DNA from: Candidatus Omnitrophota bacterium
GTDB taxonomy: Bacteria; Omnitrophota; Gorgyraeia; Zapsychrales; JANLHA01
Length of the DNA: 64,000 nucleotides
Assembly: GCA_963662715.1 (NCBI GenBank)
Contig: OY759724.1
Span: forward strand, 2,843,339 to 2,907,338
Direction of reading: 5' to 3'
How positions within the stretch are numbered: the stretch's first letter is position 1; each line of letters opens with the position of its first letter. Shown piece by piece: positions 11,425 through 58,789 of this stretch. Made by a program: the position numbers and the translations under genes. The notes under the pieces were generated by a model that saw only the letters and a list, made by a program, of their open reading frames with translations, was not told the DNA's origin and searched no databases.

Positions 11425-12492
11425 ATGATCGAACATTCAAAACCAACACTTGGATTAGAAGAGAAGAAAGCTGTTTTAGACACCCTTGACACAAATTATA
11501 TCGCGGAAGGGCCACAGGTCCGCTCTTTTGAGGATGAGGTTGCCGCGTATATAGGCTCCGTTGGGGGTGTAGCCACCTCCACGGGCACATTAGGTCTCCA
11601 CCTGGCGCTGCTCTGCTTTGACCTCACCCGGAAAGACGAAGTTCTTATCCCGAGTTATACTTGCCGGTCGGTTTTAAATGCCGTTTTATATTCTGGAGCC
11701 CGGCCCGTATTATGCGATGTCAATAAAGACGATTATAACTTATCTCTGACAGAGGTTAAGAATAAGATAACATCAAAAACAAAGGTGATAATCGTTCCGC
11801 ATATGTTTGGCTGTCCGGCCCCCGTGGACCGCTTCAAAGAGCTGGGGATACCCATTATTGAAGACTGCGCCCACGCTATCGGGGCGGAATATCAGGGCCG
11901 GAAAGTAGGATGTTGGGGGGACCTGGCGCTGTTTTCATTCGAGGGTACGAAGTATATCGTTACGGGCGAAGGGGGTATGGTTCAGGCCAATTCTCAGGTC
12001 ATGCTCGATAAACTTCGAAAACTAAAAGAGAGCGATTCTTTTGATTTTTTAACGAAATATACTTACCGGATGACTGATTTGCAGGCGGCCGTGGGCCGGG
12101 CTCAACTCAGGAAATTAGACGGTTTTATAGAGAAAAGAAGGTCTATCGCTGAAATCTACAATAAAGCTTTTCGGACCTTGCCCGTGACCGGCCCAGAGGA
12201 TAACTTGAAAGAGGGGCATATTTATCAGCGTTATATGATTCAAATCGGCGGGGGTATTCAGGCTTTCATGGAAAAATGCTATAAGAAAGGGATCAAGGTC
12301 AAACAGCCTGTTAAACCCTATGCGCTTCATTCGTATCTGAGGGTGTCTGCCCGGAGGTATCCTCATACGGAATATATTATGCATTCAGCCGTTTCTGTCC
12401 CCATTTATCCGTCGTTAACAGCCGAACAAACGGTTTATATAACTGAAACTTTAAGGGAACTATTAACAGAACATCATGCGAAATCCCCATAA
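11425..12492 (+). CDS. DegT/DnrJ/EryC1/StrS (ArnB-like) PLP-dependent sugar aminotransferase
   Basis: 355 aa. DegT family pattern with the putative PLP-lysine in FSFEGTKYIVTGEGGMV. N-terminal LGLEEKKAVLDTLDTNYIAEGPQVRSFEDE. Confidence 0.85.
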   Translation: MIEHSKPTLGLEEKKAVLDTLDTNYIAEGPQVRSFEDEVAAYIGSVGGVATSTGTLGLHLALLCFDLTRKDEVLIPSYTCRSVLNAVLYSGARPVLCDVNKDDYNLSLTEVKNKITSKTKVIIVPHMFGCPAPVDRFKELGIPIIEDCAHAIGAEYQGRKVGCWGDLALFSFEGTKYIVTGEGGMVQANSQVMLDKLRKLKESDSFDFLTKYTYRMTDLQAAVGRAQLRKLDGFIEKRRSIAEIYNKAFRTLPVTGPEDNLKEGHIYQRYMIQIGGGIQAFMEKCYKKGIKVKQPVKPYALHSYLRVSARRYPHTEYIMHSAVSVPIYPSLTAEQTVYITETLRELLTEHHAKSP

Positions 12493-13450
12493 CACAACTG
12501 TTTCTCACTATGGTTTTTTGACAGAAAAGGCCAAACGCTTTCCTCCGATGATTGTCGTTGAGATCACCAACGTTTGCAATCTGGAGTGCATCCATTGTCC
12601 GCATGCCTTTATATCCAAGGAGCCCGGGTACCAGCCACGCTATATGGGCTGGGCTCTTTACAAAAAAATCGTCGATGAAGTTTCGCAATATCCCGGAACG
12701 ATTTTCCGGCTGCTGTGTGACGGGGAGCCCTTATGCCATCCGCGCTTTATTGATATGCTCCGTTATGCGAAGGAGAAAAATGTCCGGCCCGTAAATTTCA
12801 TTACCAACGGTCTCCTGCTGGATTCTTCCAAGGCAGAGGCTGTTCTGCAATCCGGAGTTGAGGCTGTGGAATTCAGTCTTGATGCGCTTCACAAAGAGAC
12901 CTACGAGAAGATCCGGGTGGGATCGGATTTTGAAAAGGTTATGCATAATGTCCACCAGTTTATTGAAATGCGCGACCGGCTTAAGGCGCAGACCAAAATT
13001 TTTGTGAGCATTATCGATCAGCCGGAAGCCGAACAGGAACTGGAGGCCTTCCTCGCTTATTGGACGCCGAAGGTCGACCGTGTTCTGACGAGGATGTATA
13101 CCTCTATCCGGGGTTTGGTCGATACGAGAAAGATTAAGATCGACCCCGACCTGACCCGCTGGCCATGTCCGGATCTCTGGCGGCGTTTTTTTATCAACGT
13201 GGACGGCCTGGCGGAATTTTGTGTGGAAGACTGGTATGACCAGTCTGTTATCGGTGACGTGACCCAGGCCGGCATTCATGCTATTTGGCGGTCTCCCGCC
13301 TATGAGCGGATCAGGGGCCTGCATTTGCAGGGGAAATTTGAAGAGGTGTCTTATTGCCACCACTGTTTAGACTGGCGGGCCCGTGACTGGCATTATGATT
13401 ATTTCCTGGCCCTTAAAGAAGTTTTGAATCATGAAACAAAGACGGAGTAA
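12476..13450 (+). CDS. Radical SAM enzyme with C-terminal SPASM/twitch auxiliary-cluster domain
   Basis: 324 aa. CNLECIHC (CX3CX2C) radical SAM motif near the N-terminus. C-terminal Cys cluster (CPDLW...FCVEDW...YCHHC). Confidence 0.75.
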   Translation: MRNPHNTTVSHYGFLTEKAKRFPPMIVVEITNVCNLECIHCPHAFISKEPGYQPRYMGWALYKKIVDEVSQYPGTIFRLLCDGEPLCHPRFIDMLRYAKEKNVRPVNFITNGLLLDSSKAEAVLQSGVEAVEFSLDALHKETYEKIRVGSDFEKVMHNVHQFIEMRDRLKAQTKIFVSIIDQPEAEQELEAFLAYWTPKVDRVLTRMYTSIRGLVDTRKIKIDPDLTRWPCPDLWRRFFINVDGLAEFCVEDWYDQSVIGDVTQAGIHAIWRSPAYERIRGLHLQGKFEEVSYCHHCLDWRARDWHYDYFLALKEVLNHETKTE

Positions 13451-13452
13451 AC

Positions 13453-14841
13453 ATGGGAGCTGCGATATCCCCCAAGACAATAAGAACAACCCGGAGTGTC
13501 TGCCCCAAATGCCTTCAGACGATTGATGCCTTTATTGTGGAAAAGGATAACAAGGTTTTCATGCAGAAGACCTGTCAGCTGCACGGGTTTTTTGAGATAT
13601 TGCTCTCAGAGACAGCCCCGTATTATTCTGAACTGGAACAGTATTATTTTGACCTGGCGGACGAGCGCAACGAGGTGCCGGAATATGAGATCTGGCCGAC
13701 CTATAAATGCAACATTGATTGCTCTATTTGCTGTTTCGGGAAACAAAATCATGAGATGGAGGACCAGGACGCTTCTCTCTCCCAAATCGAACAGTTCATC
13801 AAAAACAGTTCCAAACGCTTTTTTATCCTTTCCGGGGGAGATCCGACCTGCCGGGATGACCTCGATCAGATCATAAAATTATTCCGGAAATACGGTAAAA
13901 CGGTCACGATCAACACCAACGGCCTGAAATGCGCGAGCATAAACTATCTTAAAAAACTTAAAGAGGCTGGCCTGGACCGCCTTAACCTGCAGTTTGACGG
14001 TTTTGACCGCAAGGCCTATATTGCGCTGCGGCGTCAGGACTATCTGGATGTGAAGTTGAAGGTTATTGAAAATTTGAAAACCCTCAATATCCAGACGACG
14101 TTCAACGCAACCATAGCCAAGAATCTTAATGAGAACGCCGTTAAAGATTTAATAGATTTCGCCGCAAAGCATCCGTTTATCAACGGGGTAAACTTTTTTA
14201 CGATTTGCTACCTGGGCGGCGCCAGGGACTGGGGCCCGGATAACTATATTATGCCTGATGAAATTGTCGACTTGCTGCAGCAACAGACGGATCATAAGGT
14301 CAGCAAAGAAAATGTCTTTATATTTCAGAAACTTCATCTGGCCATAAAATCCTTTTTATCCCAGAAATGGTGTTTTTACAATCAGGTTTATCTTTTTGTC
14401 CGTGACCGGGGTTCTTATCAGCCGATCGACCGGTATTTGAACCTGGCCAAAGCCGGCCCCTGGCTGGATAAGTACCGGGACGCTTTTATCAGGAAAAAGT
14501 TCTTGTCCCGTTTTTATCTTGGCATGGCGGTTGTGTGTCTGTTCCTGAAGAAAGAATCTTTGGTCATTTTTAAGGAAATCCTTTTAAGGGGGCTGTCTTA
14601 TTTCTTGAAAACCCAGCATTATCTGAAAGGCAGCCGTTTCTTTTCCGTCAGTTTTTCGACCGGGTGCGATCCGTATAAATTTGATCATGATATTGTCAAA
14701 CATTGTCAAAATGAGATTATCGCGGCTCAGGATGCGACAGGGATCCTGACGGAACTGGGGAGCGACGGAATTTACTGCATGAATTTAGAGAGAAGACATT
14801 TAAACAAAACCTTAAACCAGGAAAGGACGGCGTCCCCTTAA
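13453..14841 (+). CDS. Radical SAM protein with N-terminal Cys-rich ribbon; COG1964 / Tes-GDGT-MAS-like family (paralog 1 of 3)
   Basis: 462 aa. N-terminal CPKC...TCQLHG, then CNIDCSIC (CX3CX2C). Shares LQFDGFD and NxTIAKN motifs and a C-terminal CDPYKFD motif with its two paralogs. Confidence 0.65.
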   Translation: MGAAISPKTIRTTRSVCPKCLQTIDAFIVEKDNKVFMQKTCQLHGFFEILLSETAPYYSELEQYYFDLADERNEVPEYEIWPTYKCNIDCSICCFGKQNHEMEDQDASLSQIEQFIKNSSKRFFILSGGDPTCRDDLDQIIKLFRKYGKTVTINTNGLKCASINYLKKLKEAGLDRLNLQFDGFDRKAYIALRRQDYLDVKLKVIENLKTLNIQTTFNATIAKNLNENAVKDLIDFAAKHPFINGVNFFTICYLGGARDWGPDNYIMPDEIVDLLQQQTDHKVSKENVFIFQKLHLAIKSFLSQKWCFYNQVYLFVRDRGSYQPIDRYLNLAKAGPWLDKYRDAFIRKKFLSRFYLGMAVVCLFLKKESLVIFKEILLRGLSYFLKTQHYLKGSRFFSVSFSTGCDPYKFDHDIVKHCQNEIIAAQDATGILTELGSDGIYCMNLERRHLNKTLNQERTASP

Positions 14842-14842
14842 T

Positions 14843-16108
14843 ATGCTCAAGGCCTACCCCCGACATTCCGTGGATATTACAAAGCATGATTATAAACGGA
14901 TGCTTGCTTTTTTGTTCGCCCCCCGGTCCGTCAAAGCCGGATATCTGAAGCGGTTCGAGCAATCATTCGCCGGATATATCGGGACGCGGTTCGCTTTGTC
15001 CATGCCTTCCGCCAGGCTCGGTCTTTATGTCGTGTTGAAATATTTTAATTTCCCCGAGGGGACGGAAGTTATTATCACGCCTTTCACCCATCAGAGTATC
15101 TTCACGGTTCTCAAAACATTCCGGCTGAAGCCTGTTTTTGTTGACATAGACCCCAAGACCCATAACACCAATCCTTCTTTGGTCAAACAGTGTATCTCAG
15201 AAAAAACGCGCCTTATGGTTTTGACCCACATGTGGGGGCAGGCCTGTGATATGGACGCTTTTATGACGCTGAAAGAGGAATACGGCCTGAAAATCATTGA
15301 AGACTGCGCCATGGCGGCCGGGGCCGTTTATAAAGGCAAAAAAGTAGGCAGTTACGGAGATGCCAGCATATTTAGTTTCGGGAAGGCGAAAGCCATTTGT
15401 GCTTTCGGAGGAGGAATGTTGTGCCTGAATGACGAGAAGATGCATGAGTTTGTCGCTTCGGTCATTAAGGATTTTCAGCCGCCCCGGCCGTTTTCTCTGG
15501 TCTTTTCCGTGATCAATTCCGTGGTCGCCAATGTCCTCACCCGTCCGCGATGTTTTTTCCTGTCGCTTTATCCGGTTATGCGGCTTTTTAATCTCAGAGA
15601 CCCCTACAATCCGGTTGAGCATAAAAAGGATTCCGAAGTCATTCTGGAGCAGATGCCGGAAGAATGGAAAGTCCGGTTATCGTCTTTTCAGGCGGCCATA
15701 GGCCTTGAACAGCTTAAGACTTTGGAAGAACGCAATGACCGCAGAACCCAAAATGCCCGGATTTTGAACTATGCCTTGAAGGACGTCCCGGATATTGGTC
15801 TGCCGGAGACGTCAGAACGCGGGCAGCATATTTATCTCTACTATGCGGTTCACATAAAGAAGAAAACCGATCTGGACAATCTCCGGAAGAAACTGTTGGC
15901 GCGGGCCGTGGATACCCAGCTGAATGAATTGACGAATCCCGAGCAGTTAAGCATTTTTGGCGCGGACAGCGGGTCTTTTCCGGTCTTTGACAAGATCTCT
16001 CCCAACATTCTTGTTATTCCCAACGGAATAATGCTGAATGAGCAGGATATCCATGCGGTGGCACAGGCGGTCAGGGAATGCCTTGGGCCCGGCGGGGGTG
16101 AGATGTAA
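14843..16108 (+). CDS. DegT/DnrJ/EryC1 (ArnB-like) PLP-dependent aminotransferase
   Basis: 421 aa. DegT family pattern with the putative PLP-lysine in FSFGKAKAICAFGGGML. Confidence 0.8.
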   Translation: MLKAYPRHSVDITKHDYKRMLAFLFAPRSVKAGYLKRFEQSFAGYIGTRFALSMPSARLGLYVVLKYFNFPEGTEVIITPFTHQSIFTVLKTFRLKPVFVDIDPKTHNTNPSLVKQCISEKTRLMVLTHMWGQACDMDAFMTLKEEYGLKIIEDCAMAAGAVYKGKKVGSYGDASIFSFGKAKAICAFGGGMLCLNDEKMHEFVASVIKDFQPPRPFSLVFSVINSVVANVLTRPRCFFLSLYPVMRLFNLRDPYNPVEHKKDSEVILEQMPEEWKVRLSSFQAAIGLEQLKTLEERNDRRTQNARILNYALKDVPDIGLPETSERGQHIYLYYAVHIKKKTDLDNLRKKLLARAVDTQLNELTNPEQLSIFGADSGSFPVFDKISPNILVIPNGIMLNEQDIHAVAQAVRECLGPGGGEM

Positions 16109-16111
16109 GAT

Positions 16112-17425
16112 ATGATAAAGGATGATAAGTTCAGTCACATCGTCAGGGCGACTGAAAGCGTGTGTCCGGTTTGTCTGGACTCCGTTCAGGCATTGGTGCA
16201 AATCCGGGGGGAGTCTGTTTATCTTGAAAAGACATGTCCCCGGCACGGAGATTTCCGCGTCCTCTTATCGAAACACGCCAAAGATTATAAGGAGTTGTCG
16301 GATTGCTATTTCTATTTTATCCCGCAGGCTTTGGTGCAGAAAGAATATTACCTCTGCGCAACCATGCAGTGCAATATCTCCTGCCCGATTTGTTTTCTGG
16401 ATTACTGTCAGGACAGGCAGGACCTCTCTTTTGAACGTCTGGCAGACAACCTCCGCGATAAAACAGACGTGGAAAGATTTACTTTTTCCCATGGCGAACC
16501 GACCGTCAGTCCGCAATTACCCGATATGATCCGGGCTTTGAAACGGGCGAATAAACTGGTTAACATTCATACCAACGGCGTCAGACTGGCGGATTATGAT
16601 TATGCGCTTTCCTTGAGGAACGCCGGGCTCGACCATGTCAGCCTGCAGTTCGATGGTTTCCGGGACGAGATTTATCAGGCTCTCCGGGGGGCGCGGTTAT
16701 TGGATGTTAAATTAAAAGCTCTGGAGAACCTCAAACGTTTATCCTTGCCGGTCACTTTAAATGTCACGGTGGCCAAGGAGGTGAACGATGATGAATGCGG
16801 CCGGATCTTCGATTATGTCGTTAAAAATGATTTCATGAAAGACCTGAGTTATATCACTTATTGCCATTATTCTCCTGACGATAAGGATATGGAACGTTAT
16901 ATGATGCCCGATGATCTTTTGGTTATTCTGGAAAAACACACCCAAGGCCGGCTGCAAAGAGAAAATATCATCCATTTTCAGAAACTATATTATGCTTATC
17001 TCAGTGCGTCGCATAAGAGAAAATGCTTCAATTATTATCATTATTTTATCGTCCGGACAAAGACAGGCTATCGCGGAATCGACCAGTACCTGGATTTAAA
17101 AAAGATCGCGCGGGCCATAGACCGCTGCAAAGATCAAAAGAAGAAGATGACGCGCTGGAGGCTTTATAAAATATTGCTGACATCCTTGAAAAAATCCAGC
17201 CTGTTTTTGATCCCTTATGGGGTGTCCCTGGTGTTGAGAGGGGGATATCCCAAAAAACCGGGACGGTTCCTGGTGGTGACCTTTGCCAGTATCTGTGACC
17301 CTTATAAGTATGATGCCACGGTCGCTTTGAATTGCGGGCAGGGGATTGTGACGCAGAAAAATGAACAGGAAAGTTACGGTTCATATATTATCGAAGAAAT
17401 GAAAACTTTAAGAGTCCAGTCATGA
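16112..17425 (+). CDS. Radical SAM protein with N-terminal Cys-rich ribbon; COG1964 / Tes-GDGT-MAS-like family (paralog 2 of 3)
   Basis: 437 aa. CPVC...TCPRHG, then CNISCPIC. LQFDGFRDEIY. C-terminal ICDPYKYD. Confidence 0.65.
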   Translation: MIKDDKFSHIVRATESVCPVCLDSVQALVQIRGESVYLEKTCPRHGDFRVLLSKHAKDYKELSDCYFYFIPQALVQKEYYLCATMQCNISCPICFLDYCQDRQDLSFERLADNLRDKTDVERFTFSHGEPTVSPQLPDMIRALKRANKLVNIHTNGVRLADYDYALSLRNAGLDHVSLQFDGFRDEIYQALRGARLLDVKLKALENLKRLSLPVTLNVTVAKEVNDDECGRIFDYVVKNDFMKDLSYITYCHYSPDDKDMERYMMPDDLLVILEKHTQGRLQRENIIHFQKLYYAYLSASHKRKCFNYYHYFIVRTKTGYRGIDQYLDLKKIARAIDRCKDQKKKMTRWRLYKILLTSLKKSSLFLIPYGVSLVLRGGYPKKPGRFLVVTFASICDPYKYDATVALNCGQGIVTQKNEQESYGSYIIEEMKTLRVQS

Positions 17426-18999
17426 AAATTGCCTTTGTCAATGATTCCTGCGAACGGTTAGGCGTGGAGTACATTTCGGCCGTCCTTAAACAACACGGCC
17501 ACACCGTTAAGCTCTTCGCCGATCCCCAGCTGTTTAATGACGAAAATTTCACCATCGCTCCTTTCGCAAGGTTTTTTGACTATACGGAAGAACTTGTCGC
17601 GGATATCAAGGCGTTTCAGCCGGATTTAATCGCATTTTCCGTCGTGACCGACTTTTATCAATGGGCCTGCCGCCTGGCCAGGCGGATTAAGTCTGAGATG
17701 GATGTCCCGGTCCTTTTCGGCGGTATTCATGCCACTTCCGTACCTGAAAAAGTCCTGCAGCAGGATTGTGTCGATATGGTCTGCCGGGGGGAGGGGGAAT
17801 ACGCTCTTTTGGATCTTGTCACGAGTATGGAGCGGGGGGCGATAGATTATGCCACCCGGAATATTTGGTTTAAAAAAGACGGCCGGGTTATTAGGAATGA
17901 AGTCCGCCCGTTGATAGAGAACCTGGATGAGCTTCCTTTTGCGGACAAAGATCTTTTTTACGAAGCCAGCGCCCATTTTTCCCGGTGTTATTTCTTAATG
18001 ACCAACCGCGGGTGCGCCTATGCCTGTAGTTATTGCTGCAATTCGTTCCTTAAAAAATTTTATCAGGACAAGGGGAAATATCTGCGGTTCCGCAGCGTCT
18101 CTAACGTTATCCGGGAACTGGTATGGGCCAAGGAAAAGTACGGTATCCGCATGATCCGTATCCACGACGATGATTTCCTGACCCATGACGTCAAGTGGTT
18201 CGAAGAATTTTCCGGGCAGTATGCCGGGCGGATCAAAGCCCCGTTCGCCTGTTTTACTCATCCCAACAGCGTGACGGAACGCAAGGCCGCTCTTCTTAAG
18301 AAAGCGGGCTGTCATGATATCGAAGTGGGGGTCCAGTCCATCTCCGCCAAAACACGTTACGAGGTCTTAAACCGCCGTGTTTCCGATGAGCAGTTAAGCA
18401 AAGCCATCCGCATCTTAAAAGACGCCGGGATCAAAGTTATCACGGATAATATCCTGGGGCTCCCGCACCAAAGTGATCAGGAACTGCTGGATCTTATGAG
18501 ATTTTATAATAAAAACCGGATCATGAAGATTTACTGTTTTGGGTTCCGGCACTACCCGGCCACGGATATCGTGGAGTATTCCCGAAAAGCCTCTTTGCTG
18601 ACCCGGGAGGATGTTGAGAACCTGGAAAACGGCGTGAATGTCAAAACATTCATCCAGAGCGGGGATATCTTAAGCCGGGAAGCCAAACAGCTGCAGACTT
18701 TCTTTGCGTTTCTGCTTTATCTTCCGGAATCCTTTAACAATTTTATACTGAACAGAAAATTGTACCGTTTTTTCATTCCGTTACCGTATTATATTCTTGT
18801 TATTTTCTCCAACTGGCTGAGGATCCCGTATCGTTACAACTGGGCGTTGCACATTACGGTTTGCCGTTACGGCACATATATTTTCAGGCGTTTCAAGAGC
18901 AAGCTGCGGTTTCCCGGGATGTTTGCCCGGGGAAAAAGAACTGATTTTATTCTTAAACATCCCGTAGGGCAGGAATGCGGTTCAGGAGAGAGGGCTTGA
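17422..18999 (+). CDS. Cobalamin-binding-domain radical SAM enzyme (class B-like), tandem paralog 1
   Basis: 525 aa. N-terminal B12-binding Rossmann domain (MKIAFVNDSCERLGVEYISAVLK...FGGIHATSVPE...CRGEGEY), then radical SAM CAYACSYC. Start overlaps the upstream stop (ATGA). Confidence 0.85.
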   Translation: MKIAFVNDSCERLGVEYISAVLKQHGHTVKLFADPQLFNDENFTIAPFARFFDYTEELVADIKAFQPDLIAFSVVTDFYQWACRLARRIKSEMDVPVLFGGIHATSVPEKVLQQDCVDMVCRGEGEYALLDLVTSMERGAIDYATRNIWFKKDGRVIRNEVRPLIENLDELPFADKDLFYEASAHFSRCYFLMTNRGCAYACSYCCNSFLKKFYQDKGKYLRFRSVSNVIRELVWAKEKYGIRMIRIHDDDFLTHDVKWFEEFSGQYAGRIKAPFACFTHPNSVTERKAALLKKAGCHDIEVGVQSISAKTRYEVLNRRVSDEQLSKAIRILKDAGIKVITDNILGLPHQSDQELLDLMRFYNKNRIMKIYCFGFRHYPATDIVEYSRKASLLTREDVENLENGVNVKTFIQSGDILSREAKQLQTFFAFLLYLPESFNNFILNRKLYRFFIPLPYYILVIFSNWLRIPYRYNWALHITVCRYGTYIFRRFKSKLRFPGMFARGKRTDFILKHPVGQECGSGERA

Positions 19000-20333: not shown

Positions 20334-20335
20334 AC

Positions 20336-23337: not shown

Positions 23338-23352
23338 GCGGACTGGCAAATC

Positions 23353-26206: not shown

Positions 26207-26239
26207 TGCGAAACGTTTTTTATTACCGAGCGGGGTACG

Positions 26240-27760: not shown

Positions 27761-27798
27761 AGAAATGTTGGCCTTTTGAAAAGAAAGTTTCTGCATCC

Positions 27799-29409: not shown

Positions 29410-29458
29410 AGCCCAAGATGCAAGCGGGGGAAACTTTACAAGAAACGGATGAGGCAAC

Positions 29459-30499: not shown

Positions 30500-30517
30500 A
30501 AAGGCCATTGTTGATTC

Positions 30518-42697: not shown

Positions 42698-42744
42698 TAG
42701 CCGGGTGTTTTCATCCATCTGCCCATAAGACAAGCGAGTCCAGG

Positions 42745-44151: not shown

Positions 44152-44156
44152 AATTC

Positions 44157-46066: not shown

Positions 46067-46107
46067 TCCGGATTTTTATCCATTAGCGGTCTATAGCCGA
46101 TATTCTT

Positions 46108-47322: not shown

Positions 47323-47443
47323 AACGGTATAAATTTTTCAGCCTTAAAAAGTTTTATCTGAAAAATGCAAAAGCTGTTTGTCCGGGGGGCTTCCTTTCTC
47401 CGGGATATCCCATATGGATACAAAAGGCGGGTAACGGGAATTT

Positions 47444-50273: not shown

Positions 50274-50289
50274 ACCCCGGTCATTTAAA

Positions 50290-51765: not shown

Positions 51766-51766
51766 G

Positions 51767-53650
51767 ATGACCGATTTTATGGGAATGCTGTCATGGGATA
51801 AAGGGCTAAAGGCTGGCACCCGCCAGAAAATTATGAAAAATGATGATGTCCCGTCCCCTGCCGGCATTGAGACAAATCTGAACGGAGGGGGAGCGTTTAT
51901 CGGGGCGACAGGCTCTGTCGGAGCCCCCGGAACCTTCAGGGGCAAAGAGGTTCTGGGATACCATGTGATGTTCAACGGGCAGTTATACAACACCGAGGAA
52001 CTGTTCGCCGAAGGAGGAAGATCGGAAGAACGGCCCGCTTTGCCGAATCCTCCTGAACTTATAGCCGCGATGTTCCGGAAATACGGGGAACAATGTTTTT
52101 TGAGACTGAACGGAGTCTATTCCCTGGCCCTGCTTGATCCGGGGCGCAGGCTGTTTTTTCTGGGGACAGGAAAACTCAATCCCCAGACGATTTACTATCT
52201 TTATCAAGAGGAATGTCTTTATTTTGCAGATAAAATTGAAACCCTGGTAAGAATATCCGGCATGCCGCCGGAGCTTGACCATCAGTTCCTGCCCAAATAT
52301 TTTGCGCACGGCTTTGTCCCCAGCCCGCACACATTGCTGAAAGGAATACGCAAAATACCCACAGGAAGTTTTCTGCTTTTCCAGGAAGGCGGGCGGCTGT
52401 CTTTACAGCGTTACTGGGATATGCAATTCAGCGGGAAGGATGTCCCGGAACTCAGAGAAAAAGATTACAGCCGGAATATTTATAAAACATTGATCGACAC
52501 CACCCGCAGACGCCTTAATATTGATTCAAGACTGGGCGTGTTTCTAAGCGGAGGTCTTGATTCCGGATCCTTGGTTGCGGTCCTCAGTCAGTTGAAAGAG
52601 GGAAAGCCCCTGCATACCTTTACGGCGATCTTTGACGAGAAATCCTTCAGTGAAGCGAATCAGGCCAAGACTGTCGCGGCTCATTTCGGCACGAAACATT
52701 TTGAAATCCTTCTGACCCCTGAAAAGGCTCTGGAGTTTGTGAGGCGCTTAATCGGGAAAATTGACGACCCGTTTTCTGACGATGATGTCATCTGCGGGGG
52801 GGTGCTGTCCCCGGTCGCCTCTGAGCATGTCGATGACGTTTTCCTGGGAGACGGCCCCGATGAATTATTGATGGGGTACCCGTCCCTTTTAGCTCATAAA
52901 TTGTCCCGCATTTATGAAGCCGTTCCCGGGGCGCTCAGGAGAATTTTTGAGCGGGGGATGAACCGCCTGCCTGTTTCTTATGAATATTGTGCGTTTGACG
53001 CGCGGTTCAGGCAGTTTTTAGGAGGCGTGGGCTACCCGGCGGAACTCCGCGACGCGGCATGGTGGGGCCCTTTCCCGCCCCAGAATCAACCCGGCCTTTT
53101 TCACAGGGATATTCAGGAAAACCTGAACTTTGAATACCGGCAGATTTATTCTGAGGCTTTGGAGGAAATAGCCCGGGGTAATGCACATGGGATCATAGAA
53201 AAGATTTTAACATTATACATTCGGTGCCTGGGTGAACGCTGGTTCATGAAATTGAATGCCGTGAGTCAAAGCACGTCCATTCATTTTAAACTGCCTTACC
53301 TGGATGACCGTTTTGTGGAGTGCGCCAATGCCGTCCCGAGCCGGTATAAACAGAAATCGAAATATATTTTAAGAAAAGCGATGGAGACTGATTTGCCGAA
53401 GAGTATTTTATGGGGACGCAAAAGACCTTTCTTTGTCCCGTTGGCTCTGTGGATGAAGAATAATTTCAGAACATTGATTTTGGATGTCCTGACGGAAACG
53501 AATGTCCTGAAAGCGGGGTTGAACTATTCTTATGTTTCTCATATGCTTCAGCAGCATTTCTCCGGGGAAGCGAATCATGCCAAACAACTGTGGAATATCT
53601 TTATTTATGTGGCATGGGCTATCCGCCTGCCCAAGTGGGGCCGGGACTGA
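51767..53650 (+). CDS. Asparagine synthetase B-family amidotransferase / adenylating enzyme lacking the N-terminal catalytic Cys
   Basis: PP-loop SGGLDSGSLVAVL and AsnB C-domain architecture. Start taken at MTDFMGML, preceded by a GGGGGG SD. There is no Cys at position 2 and none upstream in frame. Confidence 0.75.
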   Translation: MTDFMGMLSWDKGLKAGTRQKIMKNDDVPSPAGIETNLNGGGAFIGATGSVGAPGTFRGKEVLGYHVMFNGQLYNTEELFAEGGRSEERPALPNPPELIAAMFRKYGEQCFLRLNGVYSLALLDPGRRLFFLGTGKLNPQTIYYLYQEECLYFADKIETLVRISGMPPELDHQFLPKYFAHGFVPSPHTLLKGIRKIPTGSFLLFQEGGRLSLQRYWDMQFSGKDVPELREKDYSRNIYKTLIDTTRRRLNIDSRLGVFLSGGLDSGSLVAVLSQLKEGKPLHTFTAIFDEKSFSEANQAKTVAAHFGTKHFEILLTPEKALEFVRRLIGKIDDPFSDDDVICGGVLSPVASEHVDDVFLGDGPDELLMGYPSLLAHKLSRIYEAVPGALRRIFERGMNRLPVSYEYCAFDARFRQFLGGVGYPAELRDAAWWGPFPPQNQPGLFHRDIQENLNFEYRQIYSEALEEIARGNAHGIIEKILTLYIRCLGERWFMKLNAVSQSTSIHFKLPYLDDRFVECANAVPSRYKQKSKYILRKAMETDLPKSILWGRKRPFFVPLALWMKNNFRTLILDVLTETNVLKAGLNYSYVSHMLQQHFSGEANHAKQLWNIFIYVAWAIRLPKWGRD

Positions 53651-53680
53651 AATAAAGATGTCTATGGGCAAGGGAGCCTC

Positions 53681-54979
53681 GTGAGCCGTATATTATTGTT
53701 AAAACCTTACTGGCCTTATCCTTACGGGAAGGGAGAGCATACATATAACCGTATCTGGGCGCCTTTGTCTTTATTGAACTGTGCCGCGATCCTTCAGCAG
53801 TCCGGACACCAGCCTTATATCTTGGATGCCCATGCCCTGCGCATAAAAGCGCGAAAGCTGCGGCCGTATTTACAGGGATTTGAAAAGATCGTTATTTCGT
53901 CTTCCTGTTTGGATAGATGGCAATGCCCCAACATTGATATCACGCCGTTTCTAGAGGCTGTGGAAAATCTCAAACAGGTCACCGCGGAATTTTATGTGAC
54001 AGGGTATCACGGGACAAGGTGTCCTGAGGATATGCTCAGAAAGACGGGAGCGAAAGCGGTCATCCGGGGGGAACCGGAATCCGTTATCCTGGATATTGCC
54101 AGCGGTAAAAGTCTTCAGGATATCCCCGGGATAACTTATGCCGGGCACAGCCGCATTGTTTCGAATCCTGACGCCTGTCTCCCGGATTTAAAAACATTAC
54201 CCGTGCCGGCCTACCGTTTGTTAAACCCCCGGAAGTATTTTTACGAAATCTTGGGCGGAAGATTCGCTTTGCTGGAATACAGCCGGGGATGTCAATACCA
54301 GTGCACATTCTGCAATAAGGTCATGTACGGTTCCGGATTGAGGCTCAAGTCTGCCCGCCAAATGATCGAGGAAATCCGGACCGTCGTCGAAGAATGTCAT
54401 TTCCGTTCCGGGTATTTTATCGATCTGGAATTCCTGTCCGACAGGGAAATGGTGGAGGATATCTGTGATTTTTTTATAACCGAAAATTACGATTTCAGAT
54501 GGTGCTGTCAGACCAGAGTTGACTCTTTGGACGGCGATATCCTGATGAAAATGAAGAAAGCCGGCTGCCAGCTGATTCATTTTGGGGTCGAAAGCGGCAA
54601 GCAGAAATTTTTAAATGAAACACGCAAAGGCTTTAAGCTGGACAGGGCCATGCCGTCAGTTAAACTCTGCAAAGATGCCGGGATAAAAACACTCGCTTTT
54701 TTTATCTTCGGATTTCAGGAGGAAACAGCCCGGGACAGGGCAGAGATACTCGAATACGCAAAGACTTTGGACACGGATTACGTCTCTTTTCATAAAATAT
54801 TCCCTTATGCGCAGGATAATGGAAGTGTCCCGGAATTCCGGCCGGATGAAATAGACGCGTTTATCCGTCAGGCTTTTTTGCAGTATTATTTAAGGCCGGC
54901 GTGCCTGAAAAAATTGGATTTTAATGTTCTGTTGCGCTCTGTGAGGTTGTTATGGGCCCGCATGACCTCATTGTCGTGA
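53681..54979 (+). CDS. Cobalamin-binding-domain radical SAM enzyme (class B-like)
   Basis: 432 aa. GTG start. Radical SAM motif CQYQCTFC. Confidence 0.75.
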   Translation: MSRILLLKPYWPYPYGKGEHTYNRIWAPLSLLNCAAILQQSGHQPYILDAHALRIKARKLRPYLQGFEKIVISSSCLDRWQCPNIDITPFLEAVENLKQVTAEFYVTGYHGTRCPEDMLRKTGAKAVIRGEPESVILDIASGKSLQDIPGITYAGHSRIVSNPDACLPDLKTLPVPAYRLLNPRKYFYEILGGRFALLEYSRGCQYQCTFCNKVMYGSGLRLKSARQMIEEIRTVVEECHFRSGYFIDLEFLSDREMVEDICDFFITENYDFRWCCQTRVDSLDGDILMKMKKAGCQLIHFGVESGKQKFLNETRKGFKLDRAMPSVKLCKDAGIKTLAFFIFGFQEETARDRAEILEYAKTLDTDYVSFHKIFPYAQDNGSVPEFRPDEIDAFIRQAFLQYYLRPACLKKLDFNVLLRSVRLLWARMTSLS

Positions 54980-55009
54980 CCTCTTTTAAAATACGGAATC
55001 AAGACAATA

Positions 55010-56626
55010 TTGATGAACGATGCGACACTAAAAAAATTTATTGCGGCGGCCGTTTTGCTGTGCATGACATTTTTGATCTTTTTTCATCTGGGACATTATG
55101 CTTTCTGGGATGACGAAGCTATCTGCGCTTTATTCGCCAAATCACTTTTTGAGCATGGGGATACGAGCGCTGTTTCAGGTCATAATCTGATTGCCTTCAA
55201 TGACGGCCGGGAACTGGAAAATCTTCATCAAAGATATGTCCCCCCGCTGCAGTTTTATTTTGCCGCTCCCTTTGTCGGGCAGGGAGGAGGCTCGACCTTC
55301 ATCGCCCGGTTCCCTTTTGCTGTTTGCGGTTTGCTGACGGTTGCCGTTATTTTCCTCTGGCTTTGGAGAAGCCGTGCTCCAGTTTATACCTGGCTTTTGA
55401 TGTCAGCCGGGATATTGGGAAACGTTTCCTTTATCCTCTCCTGTCGGCAATGCCGTTACTATGCCCTGAGCATGCTCCTGACTGTTCTTCTGGCATTTTT
55501 ATATTATTTTAGAACCCCCAAAAAACAGACCGTTTTGGCCATGGCAGGCGTGTCCTTGTTGCTTTTAGCTTCCAATTATTTGTGTTACGCGGCTGTTATG
55601 GGATGTTTGATCATGCATGACATCATCTGGGGCAGGAAGAGGCATGCCTCCAGCCGCTCGGATATTCTCCTTTTCTGGGGTATGCAGCTTTTCCTCGGGG
55701 GCCTCATTGTTTTGACGTATAATCCTTTGGGAAAAAATGTCTGGGATATCTCCTCGGATTCCTGGCTCAGGAACAGAACAGCTTTATTCTTCTGGAATTT
55801 TCGTGATTTGAACAGCTGTGAAATGGGCGTGGGGATTCTTATCGCTTTGTGCCCTTTTTTGTATTTTTACAAAAAAGACCGCCGTTTCCTGCAGTGTCCC
55901 GCTCTTATTGTGACATATATTTTGATCGTATCGTTATTCACCCCGCACCCTTTTGATATGCTGTGGGTCGCTTTTGTCCGTTATTTGTGTCCCTTAATCC
56001 CGCTCTGTATCTATACGGCTGTGCTGGTTATCCAGACTTTATCCGGGCACAGGCGCTGGCTGCTCATTCTTCTGGCTTTTCTGGCCTTCGGGACCAATGT
56101 TTTGCACGGAGGCCCGTTGACCAGGGTCAAACGGCACACAGCTTTCAGCCATGCCGTCGCTCACGGACATTTCCGTTCGACGTTTGTTGAATATTTCAAT
56201 GAATTGTTGACCGCAAGGCCCAATCCGTATCAATTAGTTTCTGACTGGATTAATGGCAACCTGCAGACCGGGGATACGGTCTGGGTCGTGCCGGGATACG
56301 CCAATTATCCTCTTATGTTTCACGCCCCCAAGGTTGTATATGCCTGGCAGCTCACGGAAAAACAAGGGCAGTTTTCGAACCTGCCGGATATTCATTTTAA
56401 AGGTGAGGAATGGCCTGATTACATTATCGCTTTCGGCCCGAACCTTCTGGATGTTTTTGCATTCTTTGAAAATAAAGAGGAGGCCTTTCCCTATGAAATG
56501 ATCGATCAGATAAACATTTTTTGGTCATCCTTGACCCGTCCGGAACTTTTTTGGCATTCATTCCGTGAGATTGAGAATTATTCCCTTGCGACGGAAGCCA
56601 TTTATATTTTTAAGTTTTCAGAATAA
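55010..56626 (+). CDS. GT-C fold membrane glycosyltransferase (ArnT / PMT_2-like)
   Basis: 538 aa polytopic protein. First periplasmic-loop motif FWDDEA, typical of the ArnT/PMT_2 catalytic loop. Confidence 0.55.
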   Translation: MMNDATLKKFIAAAVLLCMTFLIFFHLGHYAFWDDEAICALFAKSLFEHGDTSAVSGHNLIAFNDGRELENLHQRYVPPLQFYFAAPFVGQGGGSTFIARFPFAVCGLLTVAVIFLWLWRSRAPVYTWLLMSAGILGNVSFILSCRQCRYYALSMLLTVLLAFLYYFRTPKKQTVLAMAGVSLLLLASNYLCYAAVMGCLIMHDIIWGRKRHASSRSDILLFWGMQLFLGGLIVLTYNPLGKNVWDISSDSWLRNRTALFFWNFRDLNSCEMGVGILIALCPFLYFYKKDRRFLQCPALIVTYILIVSLFTPHPFDMLWVAFVRYLCPLIPLCIYTAVLVIQTLSGHRRWLLILLAFLAFGTNVLHGGPLTRVKRHTAFSHAVAHGHFRSTFVEYFNELLTARPNPYQLVSDWINGNLQTGDTVWVVPGYANYPLMFHAPKVVYAWQLTEKQGQFSNLPDIHFKGEEWPDYIIAFGPNLLDVFAFFENKEEAFPYEMIDQINIFWSSLTRPELFWHSFREIENYSLATEAIYIFKFSE

Positions 56627-56766
56627 CAATATGTTGATGTTGTTTTTGTCCGATATCTGATATAAAACAAAAAATGCATGGTATCCTTGAATATATGAGG
56701 TAAAATTTAAGATTAGACTTGATAAAGATATCCTGGCGATATCCGTTGTATGATTTATGTGAACAT

Positions 56767-57471
56767 ATGGACAGACAAGCCACCTCCATTTCGATTGTTC
56801 TTCCTGTTTTTAATGAGGCCGGTAATATTGAAACGACCATGCAGGAAACTGTGAACTTTTTTAAGCAGGAAAAATTTTTCCCCGAATATGAGATTATTAT
56901 TGTTGATGACGGCAGCACGGATAATTCTCCCCGAGTCTTGGACGGGCTCTCGGGAAAAATCGAACGGTTGTCTGTTGTCCGGCATGCCCAAAATCGGGGC
57001 TACGGAGCCGCTTTAGTGACTGGAATAAAGAAAGCCCGGCATCCCTGGATTCTGCTCATGGATGCAGACGGCCAGTTTAAAATCAATTCCATCCTGGACA
57101 TGATCCCCCGCATGAACAGCTGTGATGTCCTTGCCGGTTACCGGCGGAAGAGAACCGATTCCCGGATAAGGATTTTGCTGGGGAAGACTTATACTTATCT
57201 TGCGTTTTTGCTTTTTAAAGTAAAATTAAAGGATATTAACTGCGGATTTAAACTTCTGAGAAAAGATATCATTGATATTGATGCCGTGAGTTCTCATGGC
57301 GGGGCTTTTTATACGGATTTTTTTATCAAGACCCAGAAAAAAGGCTGCCGGATTGAGCAGGTCCCGGTCGAACATTTCCCCCGTTTAAAAGGGAAACAGA
57401 CCGGAGCGAGCTTCAAAGTTGTTTTGGCGGCGATGATTGATGTTTTTCGATTATTTTTTATTGATAGATAA
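56767..57471 (+). CDS. GT2 glycosyltransferase, polyprenol-phosphate sugar transferase type (ArnC/DPM1-like)
   Basis: ISIVLPVFNEAGNIETTMQETVNFF...YEIIIVDDGSTDNS. Start set at the first ATG (56767). The track begins at an upstream TTG (56719). The exact start is uncertain. Confidence 0.75.
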   Translation: MDRQATSISIVLPVFNEAGNIETTMQETVNFFKQEKFFPEYEIIIVDDGSTDNSPRVLDGLSGKIERLSVVRHAQNRGYGAALVTGIKKARHPWILLMDADGQFKINSILDMIPRMNSCDVLAGYRRKRTDSRIRILLGKTYTYLAFLLFKVKLKDINCGFKLLRKDIIDIDAVSSHGGAFYTDFFIKTQKKGCRIEQVPVEHFPRLKGKQTGASFKVVLAAMIDVFRLFFIDR

Positions 57472-57562
57472 TTTCTGCAAGATTGCTTACAATGTCTTTT
57501 GGGAAAACAGGGGCAGATGGCCTGTCCGTTAGAAAACGACCATCAATTTTAAAGAGTTTGTT

Positions 57563-58789
57563 ATGACGATAGGATTCATGCGGCGTATCGATTATTGGTT
57601 CGGGATCCCGGCGTGTTTTTTTCTTTCCATATTTCATGCCGTATTTAAAAAGCTGGCCCGTCCCAAACAGCCTCCGGCACCCATCAGAAAAATTCTCTTT
57701 TTAGAGCTGTCCGAGATCGGAAGCACCATCCTGTCTTATCCTGCCATCACCAAGGCCAAAGAGCTGTTCCCGGAGAGCGAGCTTTTTTTCTGGATTTTTG
57801 AATCCAACCAGGATGCTGTGCATGTCCTGAAAGTTATTGACCGAAAAAATGTTTTAACTGTTAGGACAAAAAATTTGTTCATCTCCGCAAAAGACCTGAT
57901 AAACAATTTACGGAGGATCCGCAGAGAAAAAATCGATGTTGTCCTTGACTTGGAATTGTTTTCCAGGTTCAGTTGTGTTTTATCCTTCCTGTCCGGAGCC
58001 CCCCGCCGGGTCGGGTTTCACTCATTCGCCCAGGAGGGGCTTTATCGCGGGAATCTTCATACGCACAGAGTCTCTTATAACCCTTACCAGCACATTTCCG
58101 TGAATTTTCTTTCTCTTGTCAGCGGGATCAATGCGCCGCTAGATCAAGTGCCCCTTGTCAAAGAATATTATGAAAAGAAGGGCTGCGATATCCTCCTGCC
58201 GAAGTTAAAATCAACGGGAGACGGGAAGAAAGCCATTTGGAAAAAGTTGAAACAGATTGCTCCGGATATTGACGAAAAGAAAACAATTGTTGTTATCCAT
58301 CCCGGGATCAAGGAAGCTTTGCCTTTGCGCCAATGGGCCTTAGGCCACTATTTGGAACTGACCCGGAGGTTGCTCCTGAATCCCAATGTCTTTATCGTTA
58401 TGGCCGGGGTGCTTTATGAATCGCTGGATAAAGATATTGTCGAGCAGTTGCGTATGCCCCGTTTGATAAATCTAATAGGGAAGACCTCGATCCCGGAGTT
58501 GATTGATTTGTTCAACGTATCTGATATGCTGATCAGCCATGACGGCGGTATTATTCATATCGCGTCTTTAACCCCCGTTCATATCATTGCCCTTTTCGGC
58601 CCGGAGACGCCTTCCTTGTACCAGCCGTTGACAGACAATAAGACAATTTTATATCGGCCTTTGTCCTGCAGCCCTTGTTTAACGGCCTACAATCACCGGA
58701 TTTCCATGTGCCGTGACAATCAGTGCGTTCGGGAGATTACTGTCGAAGAGGTTCTGGAAAAGGCTTTGTGTTCTTTGCCGGATGCCTGA
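57563..58789 (+). CDS. GT9 family glycosyltransferase (ADP-heptose:LPS heptosyltransferase-like)
   Basis: 408 aa. Typical GT9 two-Rossmann layout (...DVVLDLELFSRFS...VIHPGIKEALPLRQW...LISHDGGIIHIAS...). Confidence 0.7.
   Translation: MTIGFMRRIDYWFGIPACFFLSIFHAVFKKLARPKQPPAPIRKILFLELSEIGSTILSYPAITKAKELFPESELFFWIFESNQDAVHVLKVIDRKNVLTVRTKNLFISAKDLINNLRRIRREKIDVVLDLELFSRFSCVLSFLSGAPRRVGFHSFAQEGLYRGNLHTHRVSYNPYQHISVNFLSLVSGINAPLDQVPLVKEYYEKKGCDILLPKLKSTGDGKKAIWKKLKQIAPDIDEKKTIVVIHPGIKEALPLRQWALGHYLELTRRLLLNPNVFIVMAGVLYESLDKDIVEQLRMPRLINLIGKTSIPELIDLFNVSDMLISHDGGIIHIASLTPVHIIALFGPETPSLYQPLTDNKTILYRPLSCSPCLTAYNHRISMCRDNQCVREITVEEVLEKALCSLPDA

Follow-up and report, generated by a model that had tools for sequence, protein, structure and literature searches.

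Organization of the locus

A 64,000-nucleotide stretch of contig OY759724.1 from a Candidatus Omnitrophota genome (assembly GCA_963662715.1), hereafter the window, contains at positions 11425-58789 a locus of 35 open reading frames (ORFs), 17 of which encode radical S-adenosylmethionine (rSAM) enzymes (Table 1). On balance, we lean towards reading it as an envelope-glycan locus in which two or three lipid-carrier glycosylation systems, each with a GT2 glycosyltransferase, an LPG_synthase_TM membrane protein and a GT-C transferase, would operate together with a large set of rSAM tailoring enzymes. About 98% of the DNA is coding. Thirty-three genes lie on the plus strand and two (33819-35312 and 35294-36793) on the minus strand, the median spacing is 4 nt, and only one gap is sizeable, the divergent region of 356 bp between 36793 and 37150. 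The gene inventory and counts had been set out in a preliminary description and were reproduced with Pfam almost item by item, including the uniform orientation of all but two genes. The overlapping start and stop codons reported there are found at 13 of the 34 ORF junctions, and the ATGA form at five. As listed, the starts at 31198 (TTG), 50230 (TTG) and 51716 (ATG) overlap the preceding gene by 44-50 nt, and the sister orthologues of their products are shorter by 11-21 residues; the true starts of these three genes probably lie further downstream.

Is this density of rSAM genes unusual? With a background rSAM rate of 5%, a generous ceiling that was assumed and not taken from the host genome, the binomial P for 17 of 35 is about 1e-13. 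Among the 18 remaining genes, 14 belong to glycan-type families (four DegT, two GT2, four GT-C, WbqC, GT9, AsnB and a CapK-like ligase), and the count rises to 16 with two flippase-like proteins. Polyketide synthase, nonribosomal peptide synthetase, transposase, integrase and tRNA genes were not found in the window, as had been said before of all but the last, and no Rfam element, riboswitches included, matched at gathering thresholds.

Pfam matches were judged against Pfam gathering scores and NCBIfam matches against curated cut-offs. No NCBIfam equivalog cut-off was reached by any of the 27 locus proteins scanned; the DegT, GT2, GT9 and AsnB proteins also fall below NCBIfam cut-offs. Function is therefore argued from context and distant similarity. 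The earlier statement that no characterised pathway is known to combine so many class B rSAM enzymes with Arn-like glycosylation agrees with these scores and with the literature searched, in which no description of such a locus was found. The locus itself is thus not found described; its working principle resembles lipid-carrier glycosylation systems, with a new combination of enzymes.

Table 1. Genes of the locus and the first GT-C gene beyond it. Paired values are the score obtained and the threshold; TM, transmembrane; PLP, pyridoxal phosphate; AF2, AlphaFold2.
Feature	Position	Strand	Basis
DegT1, short (355 aa) DegT/ArnB-family PLP aminotransferase	11425..12492	+	Pfam DegT 279 bits; PseC, LegC and ArnB models below cut-off
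rSAM with one-cluster twitch-like tail, BtrN-like candidate dehydrogenase	12476..13450	+	Pfam rSAM+SPASM
ZnR1, Zn-ribbon (Zn_ribbon_HMPTM) + rSAM, Tes/TrsS-like	13453..14841	+	Pfam
DegT2, long DegT with hydrophobic ~50-aa insertion	14843..16108	+	Pfam match split in two; alignment
ZnR2, paralogue of ZnR1	16112..17425	+	Pfam Zn_ribbon_HMPTM+rSAM
B12a1, B12-domain rSAM, group a	17422..18999	+	Pfam B12 68 bits, rSAM 86 bits; HpnJ 104 vs 578
MiaB-like rSAM without TRAM	18975..20333	+	UPF0004+rSAM; TIGR00089 223.6 vs 251 bits
B12a2, B12-domain rSAM, group a	20336..21844	+	Pfam, NCBIfam, paralogue identity
B12a3, B12-domain rSAM, group a	21841..23337	+	Pfam; nearest solved structure AprD4 1.9e-15
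B12a4, B12-domain rSAM, group a	23353..24882	+	Pfam, NCBIfam, paralogue identity
ZnR3, Zn_ribbon_HMPTM+rSAM	24866..26206	+	Pfam; nearer than ZnR1 and ZnR2 to ZnR genes of other phyla
B12a5, B12-domain rSAM, group a	26240..27760	+	Pfam, NCBIfam, paralogue identity
Mem1, 6 TM helices + C-terminal beta-propeller-like domain	27799..29409	+	Hydropathy; weak YNCE/DUF6923 matches below Pfam threshold
LPG_synthase_TM (MprF-flippase-like) membrane protein 1	29459..30499	+	Pfam 75 bits
GT2a, short ArnC/DPM1-like GT2	30518..31246	+	Pfam GT2; best NCBIfam ArnC, 67 vs 529 bits
WbqC-like protein	31198..31941	+	Pfam WbqC 249 bits; sister orthologue 227 aa; TTG start probably too far upstream
YfhO-type GT-C transferase	31972..33807	+	Pfam YfhO C-terminus 39 bits, weak GT-C_AftD; 11 TM helices
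CapK/PaaK/F390-synthetase-like adenylate-forming ligase	33819..35312	-	PaaK 137, DVU_1553 121, FlxY 110 bits, all below NCBIfam cut-off
B12x, divergent B12a-like rSAM	35294..36793	-	rSAM 29.4 vs 29.5 bits; CPCSCSYC; no B12 match
HEAT-repeat protein with N-terminal signal anchor	37150..38322	+	Pfam HEAT_2 118 bits; one TM helix
B12b1, B12-domain rSAM	38386..39894	+	Pfam; HpnJ 174 vs 578 bits; AprD4 3e-25
DegT3, long DegT with helical hydrophobic insertion	39891..41168	+	Pfam; alignment; AF2 model
B12b2, B12-domain rSAM	41165..42697	+	BchE 146, HpnJ 145 bits, below cut-offs
B12b3, B12-domain rSAM	42745..44151	+	Pfam, NCBIfam
LPG_synthase_TM membrane protein 2	44157..45077	+	Pfam 112 bits
Small rSAM with twitch-like tail	45074..46066	+	Pfam rSAM 96 bits; adjoins DegT4
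DegT4, long DegT with insertion	46108..47322	+	Pfam; alignment
PMT_2-type GT-C transferase	47444..48730	+	Pfam PMT_2 99 bits
Mem2, GT-C-fold transferase, rare family without Pfam model	48720..50273	+	Fold comparison
B12b4, B12-domain rSAM	50230..51765	+	Pfam, NCBIfam; homologue P0187 fused to GT2
AsnB-type glutamine amidotransferase	51716..53650	+	Pfam Asn_synthase 198 bits; exopolysaccharide (EPS) amidotransferase model 255 vs 817
B12b5, B12-domain rSAM, variable tail	53681..54979	+	Pfam, NCBIfam
Mem3, probable GT-C	55010..56626	+	No Pfam match; hhalign to PMT_2-like profile 85.5%, E 5.8e-6; WDDEA after TM1
GT2b, polyprenyl-phosphate-type GT2	56719..57471	+	Pfam GT2; nearest solved ArnC 3.5e-14, DPMS, GtrB
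GT9 (heptosyltransferase family)	57563..58789	+	Pfam 65 bits; heptosyltransferase II model 78 vs 135 bits
Weak PMT_2-like GT-C, just beyond the locus	59720..61420	+	Pfam 25.2 vs 26.1 bits; hhalign to PMT2 profile 97.9%

Radical SAM enzymes

The CxxxCxxC motif is intact in all 17 rSAM proteins, the B12-type ones included, and 16 score above the Pfam gathering score for PF04055. Eleven cobalamin-domain ORFs had been counted in the preliminary description. Ten of them carry B12-binding and Radical_SAM domains: seven of the 11 exceed the gathering score for PF02310, and three (41165, 50230 and 53681) lie just below it, with scores of 31.0, 29.0 and 24.6 against 32.1. The domain is undetected in the eleventh, B12x. 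No DxHxxG motif occurs inside the N-terminal B12 domain of these ORFs; class B rSAM enzymes usually lack it. Five tight paralogues (17422, 20336, 21841, 23353 and 26240; group a) are 41-49% identical, while group b is a looser set of five (38386, 41165, 42745, 50230 and 53681) at 23-36%. B12x, 25-27% identical to group a, is set apart as an outlier.

What might the B12-type enzymes do? On named class B families (HpnJ, BchE, PhpK, KedN5, HpnR, TIGR04072 and others) they score at best 50-174 bits, where the cut-offs are 251-775. For seven of the 11 the top NCBIfam match is HpnJ, and the B12a proteins score about equally on HpnJ and on TIGR04072 ('lipid biosynthesis B12-binding/radical SAM'). For both B12-type proteins compared with solved structures, B12a3 and B12b1, the nearest is AprD4, named diol-dehydratase in NCBIfam, an enzyme not known to use cobalamin. 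Not one B12-type ORF reaches the cut-off of any NCBIfam methyltransferase family. The poly-C-methylated and/or cross-linked product envisaged earlier does not follow from these matches, and C-methylation is only one possibility among several chemistries.

The three Zn-ribbon proteins (13453, 16112 and 24866) are, as previously described, paralogues, with mutual identities of 34-40%. ZnR1 scores 178 against 490 bits on TrsS, a family with no assigned function that is the best NCBIfam match of these proteins, and the Tes model NF045702 (cut-off 450 bits) gives 156, 124 and 161 bits for the three. The only strong solved relative of ZnR1 is GDGT-MAS (7tol; 153 bits). A working definition of a Tes homologue is a BLASTP E < 1e-50 (PMC8941075), with which the phmmer E of 9e-44 between ZnR1 and 7tol is not directly comparable. 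ZnR1 has 94 homologues, and every one with a source name is from Omnitrophota.

These similarities bring up an alternative in which the locus remodels membrane lipids. The Tes-like and B12-type enzymes would couple, cyclise or methylate lipid tails, chemistry for which Tes, Grs, Gms and the hopanoid methylases are analogues, and the DegT, GT2 and GT-C enzymes would decorate the head group. The GDGT-MAS match speaks for this, as do the place of Tes among the top two NCBIfam matches of all three ZnR proteins and the near-equal TIGR04072 and HpnJ scores of the B12a proteins. Omnitrophota are also reported to carry homologues of Mss and Hbs/Gms (10.1101/2023.10.20.563219; PMC11868695), and antiSMASH-style 'ladderane' clusters have been called in them (PMC9902471). 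However, the Tes scores of 124-161 bits are far from the cut-off and are exceeded by TrsS, and the window is without any lipid-synthesis gene (acyl/alkyl transferase, fatty-acid/isoprenoid synthase, plasmalogen/ether-lipid enzyme). The glycan-type majority among the non-rSAM genes (14 of 18, or 16 with the flippase-like proteins) also argues against tail chemistry, and a GT2 fusion and a mini-cluster embedded among lipid A genes, both described below, link the B12b type to glycosyl transfer. We consider lipid remodelling unlikely.

Two smaller rSAM proteins had been described as SPASM/twitch enzymes. Their tails are indeed twitch-like, but each holds cysteines for one cluster only, and the 45074 product matches the Pfam rSAM domain alone. 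The C-terminal cysteines of the 12476 product are just 231, 249, 294 and 297, and those of the 45074 product 251, 269, 301, 304 and 306. The auxiliary [4Fe-4S] cluster of BtrN has four Cys ligands (PMC10337720). The pattern in both tails fits one auxiliary cluster as in BtrN, a fit taken from cysteine spacing and not from an alignment of the tails to BtrN. The nearest solved structures of 12476 are BtrN (8e-10) and DesII; that of 45074 is cytosylglucuronate decarboxylase (BlsE; 2.6e-11). Both genes adjoin a DegT gene, 12476 next to DegT1 and 45074 next to DegT4. This gene context suggests, by analogy, oxidise-then-transaminate chemistry and not peptide cross-linking.

The same tails bear on whether B12-type and SPASM-type rSAM enzymes here mature a ribosomally synthesised and post-translationally modified peptide (RiPP) or protein. 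Such enzymes, like AsnB-like ones, do occur in RiPP pathways, weak matches were seen to ApyD (up to 147 vs 750 bits) and lasso cyclase (119 vs 525 bits), and a 90-aa Cys-rich ORF (59245-59517) and a pilin-like gene (10639-11028) lie nearby. Yet the 'SPASM' tails carry one cluster's worth of Cys, and the pilin gene is not conserved next to the locus. In keeping with the earlier observation that RiPP hallmarks are lacking, neither the locus nor its inter-gene gaps contain a precursor-like ORF, and no protease, exporter or recognition-element gene was found. Peptide maturation strikes us as extremely improbable.

The remaining rSAM gene, 18975, encodes the MiaB-family protein without TRAM that had been noted before. 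Its three N-terminal cysteines (20, 56 and 88) correspond to Cys 15, 51 and 82 in the housekeeping paralogue, and the protein stops at the end of the rSAM domain, its profile match ending at position 381 of 429. An eighteenth rSAM gene, at 7212-8513 (+) in the left flank, is a full MiaB/MtaB-type gene that adjoins Dus, as it also does in an Omnitrophota relative (L008); it is a housekeeping gene outside the locus.

Aminotransferases, membrane proteins and glycosyl transfer

Pfam and NCBIfam comparison bore out the earlier assignment of four DegT, two GT2, two flippase-like, GT9, WbqC, CapK/F390-like ligase and AsnB proteins; the sister-contig orthologue of the ligase carries Pfam CapK_C. Three of the four DegT proteins (DegT2, DegT3 and DegT4) share a hydrophobic insertion of 45-60 residues after the PLP-lysine region. 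In DegT3 the insertion (residues 208-281) does not align to the best-matching solved DegT chain, and the AF2 model places three helices at 218-268, with pLDDT (the model's per-residue confidence) of 51-71 across the insertion. The insertion, with a conserved aromatic-Pro motif, recurs in DegT proteins of related loci. To judge from the hydropathy and the model, the long DegT enzymes may be held at the membrane by it.

The solved structure closest to DegT3 carries the annotation glutamine--scyllo-inositol transaminase, and BtrR-type enzymes also match. Might the product be a diffusible secondary metabolite, an aminocyclitol or a compound akin to aminoglycosides, built anaerobically by rSAM enzymes? 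The occurrence of BtrN-like and AprD4-like rSAM enzymes alongside DegT enzymes would suit this, as would the TobZ/NodU-type carbamoyltransferases of related loci. Against it, the locus has no cyclitol synthase, exporter or resistance gene, and its chromosomal position and clade-wide inheritance are conserved. Moreover, the presence of four GT-C enzymes, two polyprenyl-phosphate-type GT2 enzymes and two flippase-like proteins implies that sugars are transferred in the periplasm to an acceptor in the envelope. We regard a diffusible metabolite as very unlikely.

The four or five GT-C transferases of the preliminary description resolve into four within the locus (31972, 47444, 48720 and, as a probable member, 55010) and a fifth just downstream at 59720. 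By sequence, Mem1, Mem2 and Mem3 gave nothing significant against the PDB, and relaxed Pfam scans returned nothing for Mem2 and Mem3. Mem2 found no match by hhalign to local GT-C profiles, and its assignment comes from fold comparison, in which the nearest solved fold is ArnT; its family numbers 47 representatives among 1.84 billion proteins. Mem1, with four homologues among 5.8e9 proteins, is lineage-specific, and its 6 TM helices and beta-propeller-like domain rule it out as a GT-C enzyme. The locus holds two sets of flippase-like protein, GT2 and GT-C, which makes lipid-carrier glycosylation of the Arn, Gtr or YfhO style the best reading of its transferases.

Conservation and genomic setting

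A gene-neighbourhood search for syntenic loci, as the preliminary description had suggested, recovered two colinear contigs and, for the first half of the locus, at least 11 GTDB Omnitrophota species representatives. On ENA contig ctg94084l (L001, L079 and L083) the genes from DegT1 to AsnB are colinear, with 31 orthologues at 45-84% identity, the minus-strand ligase/rSAM pair and the HEAT gene among them; the contig has one extra Zn-ribbon and one extra B12a paralogue, and unrelated genes beyond AsnB. JGI contig Ga0268387_1001893 (L087) has the same second half, which there too ends at AsnB. DegT1 orthologues, 58-70% identical, head the locus in Omnitrophota loci. By this comparison the conserved unit is 11425-53650, AsnB being the last gene kept in both contigs that reach this point. 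The last four genes (B12b5, GT-C, GT2 and GT9; 53681-58789) are absent from both contigs, so this tail is, on gene content, a variable add-on. The extent of about 47 kb given earlier combines the two.

Do the parts of the locus serve one purpose? Module A (11.4-33.8 kb), module B (37.2-53.7 kb) and the tail (53.7-58.8 kb) might be juxtaposed operons, each for a different envelope modification. In addition to being missing from both sister contigs, the tail recurs at the end of another rSAM cluster, L019, where a 54% B12b5 orthologue adjoins orthologues of GT2b and GT9. Flippase-like, GT2 and GT-C genes are present separately in each module, and sets like module B (a small rSAM, a ZnR protein and B12b-like rSAMs, with or without DegT) stand alone in many phyla. 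The order is not fixed either, as a 69% B12b1 orthologue lies directly upstream of DegT1 in L008. On the other side, although orthologue identities to ctg94084l are only 45-84%, modules A and B have remained neighbours there in unchanged gene order, still separated by the divergent ligase/rSAM pair and the HEAT gene. Separate operons are possible for the tail and less likely for the two halves given this colinearity; for the locus as a whole we find this explanation quite improbable.

The preliminary description spoke of an island. The GC content is 0.44-0.50 within the locus and 0.41-0.49 outside it, so there is no composition break; neither mobility gene nor tRNA was found in the window; and the Dus and MiaB genes that precede the locus do so also in Omnitrophica WOR_2 RIFOXYA2 (L008). 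A mobile island is therefore rejected: gene order and composition mark the locus as chromosomal and as vertically inherited within an Omnitrophota clade.

Many loci share the order DegT, twitch rSAM, Zn-ribbon rSAM. A looser set occurs in other Omnitrophota and in metagenome-assembled genomes (MAGs) labelled Holophagae/Thermoanaerobaculales, Myxococcales, Verrucomicrobia, Lentisphaerae, Kiritimatiellia, Undinarchaeota and Nanoarchaeota; it combines one small rSAM of the twitch type with one Zn-ribbon rSAM and between three and five B12-type rSAMs, and a long DegT is often present as well. Some related loci add Peptidase_U32, aldo-keto reductase, PEMT/ICMT methyltransferase, TobZ/NodU-type carbamoyltransferase or GT2 genes; the Peptidase_U32, aldo-keto reductase, PEMT and POR genes of these relatives are absent from the present window and were left out of the model below for that reason.

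Two relatives connect the B12b type to glycosyl transfer. P0187 (L084 3635-6085, 816 aa), a homologue of the 50230 product, joins a B12-domain rSAM and a GT2 in a single natural fusion protein. In MAG GCA_936419525.1 (L086) the order is GT9, a B12b-like rSAM (39-40% identical), a long DegT with the same insertion, PMT_2 and GT9, and this mini-cluster sits among one LpxA-type and three Lip_A_acyltrans (late-acyltransferase-type, LpxL-type) lipid A genes.

A model for envelope-glycan modification

How could these enzymes act together on an envelope glycan? The two BtrN-like twitch rSAM enzymes would oxidise a secondary alcohol of a common sugar, supplied either as nucleotide sugar or on polyprenyl phosphate. 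The ketone would be transaminated by the neighbouring DegT enzymes, three of the four having the hydrophobic helical insertion and perhaps being membrane-held. The B12-domain and Tes-like Zn-ribbon rSAM enzymes would attack unactivated carbons, with deoxygenation, C-methylation, ring contraction and C-C bond formation as candidate reactions. The TRAM-less MiaB-like enzyme might add a methylthio group, and the CapK-like ligase and AsnB might form amides. The lipid-linked sugars would then be flipped and moved by the GT-C enzymes to a periplasmic acceptor, most likely the lipopolysaccharide (LPS) core or lipid A; GT9 would help build the core. Each of these steps is drawn from gene context and distant similarity.

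Carbohydrate substrates are suggested by the nearest solved relatives (BtrN, DesII, AprD4, cytosylglucuronate decarboxylase, ArnC, DPMS, GtrB and the ArnT-like fold of Mem2), by the adjacency of twitch rSAM and DegT genes, which mirrors BtrN/BtrS, by the P0187 fusion, and by the extra GT2 genes and carbamoyltransferases in relatives. The GT9 within the locus and the L086 mini-cluster among lipid A genes point to LPS as acceptor. Several observations weigh against the proposal. Genes for nucleotide-sugar synthesis or activation (nucleotidyltransferase, short-chain dehydrogenase/reductase-type dehydratase, epimerase) are absent from the window. No rSAM protein reaches a curated NCBIfam family cut-off, so the reaction types come from distant similarity; the BtrN similarity of the 12476 product is limited to the rSAM core; and the only close solved relative of the Zn-ribbon enzymes couples lipid tails. 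The membrane association of the long DegT enzymes rests on hydropathy and a moderate-confidence model.

A bolder extension of the envelope-glycan model, which we consider unlikely, is an all-radical, O2- and NAD-independent route to envelope sugars in Omnitrophota, looser in other anaerobic phyla and DPANN. It would comprise rSAM dehydrogenases that supply membrane-anchored DegT enzymes, Tes-like C-C bonding or branching on carbohydrate, sugar thiomethylation by the TRAM-less MiaB relative, and multi-amino, C-branched or carbocyclic (aminocyclitol-like) units on lipid A or the LPS core. To our knowledge, Tes-like enzymes are so far known only for lipid-tail coupling. If the route exists, aminoglycoside-type chemistry would serve as cell-surface armour.

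Three of the related loci, L016, L019 and L050 (other Omnitrophota and one Nanoarchaeota MAG), have Peptidase_U32 directly after the Zn-ribbon rSAM, together with an aldo-keto reductase-ferredoxin fusion, PEMT/ICMT, an amine-oxidase-like flavoprotein and POR-like subunits. The Peptidase_U32 family includes O2-independent hydroxylases, and these gene sets hint at an anaerobic route that would hydroxylate, oxidise and aminate.

Comparison with known systems

The Arn-like lipid-carrier glycosylation of the preliminary description is now better founded, through the ArnC, DPMS and GtrB relatives of GT2b, the ArnT-like fold of Mem2 and the L086 lipid A mini-cluster. With the Arn pathway the locus shares a DegT aminotransferase, a GT2 nearest ArnC, a GT-C fold nearest ArnT and a GT9/LPS context. 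It differs in having no ArnA, ArnD or ArnE/F domain in any of the 35 products and in missing the cut-offs of the ArnB and ArnC models. The keto-sugar would come from rSAM oxidation and not from an NAD-dependent dehydrogenase, and Arn has no counterpart to the 17 rSAM enzymes. Three-component systems (GtrA/B/C; CsbB/GtcA/YfhO) combine a polyprenyl-phosphate-sugar GT2, a membrane flippase and a GT-C enzyme, and the locus likewise has a GT2 of this type, a flippase candidate and GT-C enzymes (YfhO/PMT_2) in operonic arrangement. Here, however, the flippase candidate is LPG_synthase_TM (MprF-like) and not GtrA/GtcA, there are several GT-C enzymes per GT2, and tailoring genes are interposed.

In the hopanoid head-group pathway (HpnI/HpnK/HpnJ, with HpnL), a B12-domain rSAM acts on a lipid-linked amino sugar. 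The pairing of GT2 and B12-domain rSAM is common to both systems, and HpnL belongs to the LPG_synthase_TM family; yet HpnJ scores are 50-174 against 578 bits, and no HpnK deacetylase or hopanoid gene is present in the window. Aminoglycoside and nucleoside tailoring (BtrN with BtrS, AprD4, BlsE, DesII) supplies the nearest solved relatives of four of the locus rSAM enzymes compared with solved structures, and the twitch rSAM adjoining DegT recalls BtrN/BtrS. The similarity is modest (about E 1e-9 to 1e-25) and mostly in the rSAM core, and the surrounding genes are those of envelope glycosylation and not of a secondary-metabolite cluster.

Tes/GDGT-MAS resembles the ZnR proteins in its Zn-ribbon plus rSAM architecture, but its NCBIfam cut-off is missed here, the ZnR paralogues number three to five per locus and adjoin aminotransferase genes, and genes for ether or membrane-spanning lipid synthesis are lacking in the window and in the Omnitrophota loci examined. 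The MiaB/RimO/MtaB enzymes share with the 18975 product UPF0004 with three Cys and the rSAM domain; that product differs in lacking TRAM and in falling below the TIGR00089 cut-off. In Elusimicrobia, nifH/D/K-like genes adjoin rSAM genes (10.1101/765248). An equivalent of this NifH-paralogue/rSAM cluster was rejected, since no nifH/D/K-like domain occurs in the window.

Implications

Should the envelope-glycan model be correct, the locus would be the densest known concentration of rSAM chemistry devoted to a cell-envelope glycan, and would give strict anaerobes a route to amino and deoxy sugars that bypasses the usual NAD-dependent dehydratases. It would also be a source of new activities, with some six rSAM subfamilies that are uncharacterised, DegT enzymes with a membrane-type insertion and a GT-C family that no Pfam model covers. 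Omnitrophota include very small cells thought to be host-dependent, for which an unusual and variable surface glycan would be relevant to partner attachment and phage evasion; paralogue copy number varies between genomes, as in O-antigen-like diversification. The 'Tes homologue' markers for producers of branched glycerol dialkyl glycerol tetraethers (brGDGT) overlap the genes of the looser relatives found in Acidobacteriota, Myxococcota and the PVC (Planctomycetes-Verrucomicrobia-Chlamydiae) phyla, and if some Tes-like genes do belong to sugar-tailoring contexts, caution would be called for when such homologues are used as brGDGT markers.

Database labels and flanking genes

Loci 54-72% identical to the Omnitrophota one are carried by 'binchicken' MAGs titled Planctomycetales/Planctomycetia (among L005, L009, L013 and L031-L045), and other MAGs titled Rickettsiales carry anaerobe-type rSAM clusters; taxonomy from record titles looks unreliable here. 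The P0187 gene has as neighbours two SAM methyltransferases, another GT2 and DUF2304.

Between the Dus-MiaB flank and the locus, a defence-like gene is inserted at 8538-9419 (+), whose product has a long Pro/Glu/Ala-rich low-complexity N-terminus and a CAP12/Pycsar-type TIR domain (Pfam; PADLOC PDC-S35 8e-13). Downstream of the locus, 61610-63589 (+) encodes an AAA_15/AAA_21 ATPase of the OLD/AbiL/AriA/GajA-like kind. The sister contig has a copy with 62% identity (L001 325-2307) on the upstream side of the locus, and the opposite positions of the two copies indicate that the neighbourhood was rearranged around the locus.

Just upstream of DegT1 are two small signal-anchored proteins (9416-9979 and 10056-10595), one with a weak glutaredoxin-like match, and a type IV pilin-like protein with an N_methyl motif at 10639-11028 (+). 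None of the three genes is a conserved neighbour in L001 or L008, and the pilin was rejected as a glycosylation target on this ground. The 90-aa ORF at 59245-59517 (+) lies in a 930-bp gap between GT9 and the next GT-C gene, and its product combines an N-terminal hydrophobic helix with a Cys-rich tail (CVRFYLASCSGNGCTPSCGAGS).

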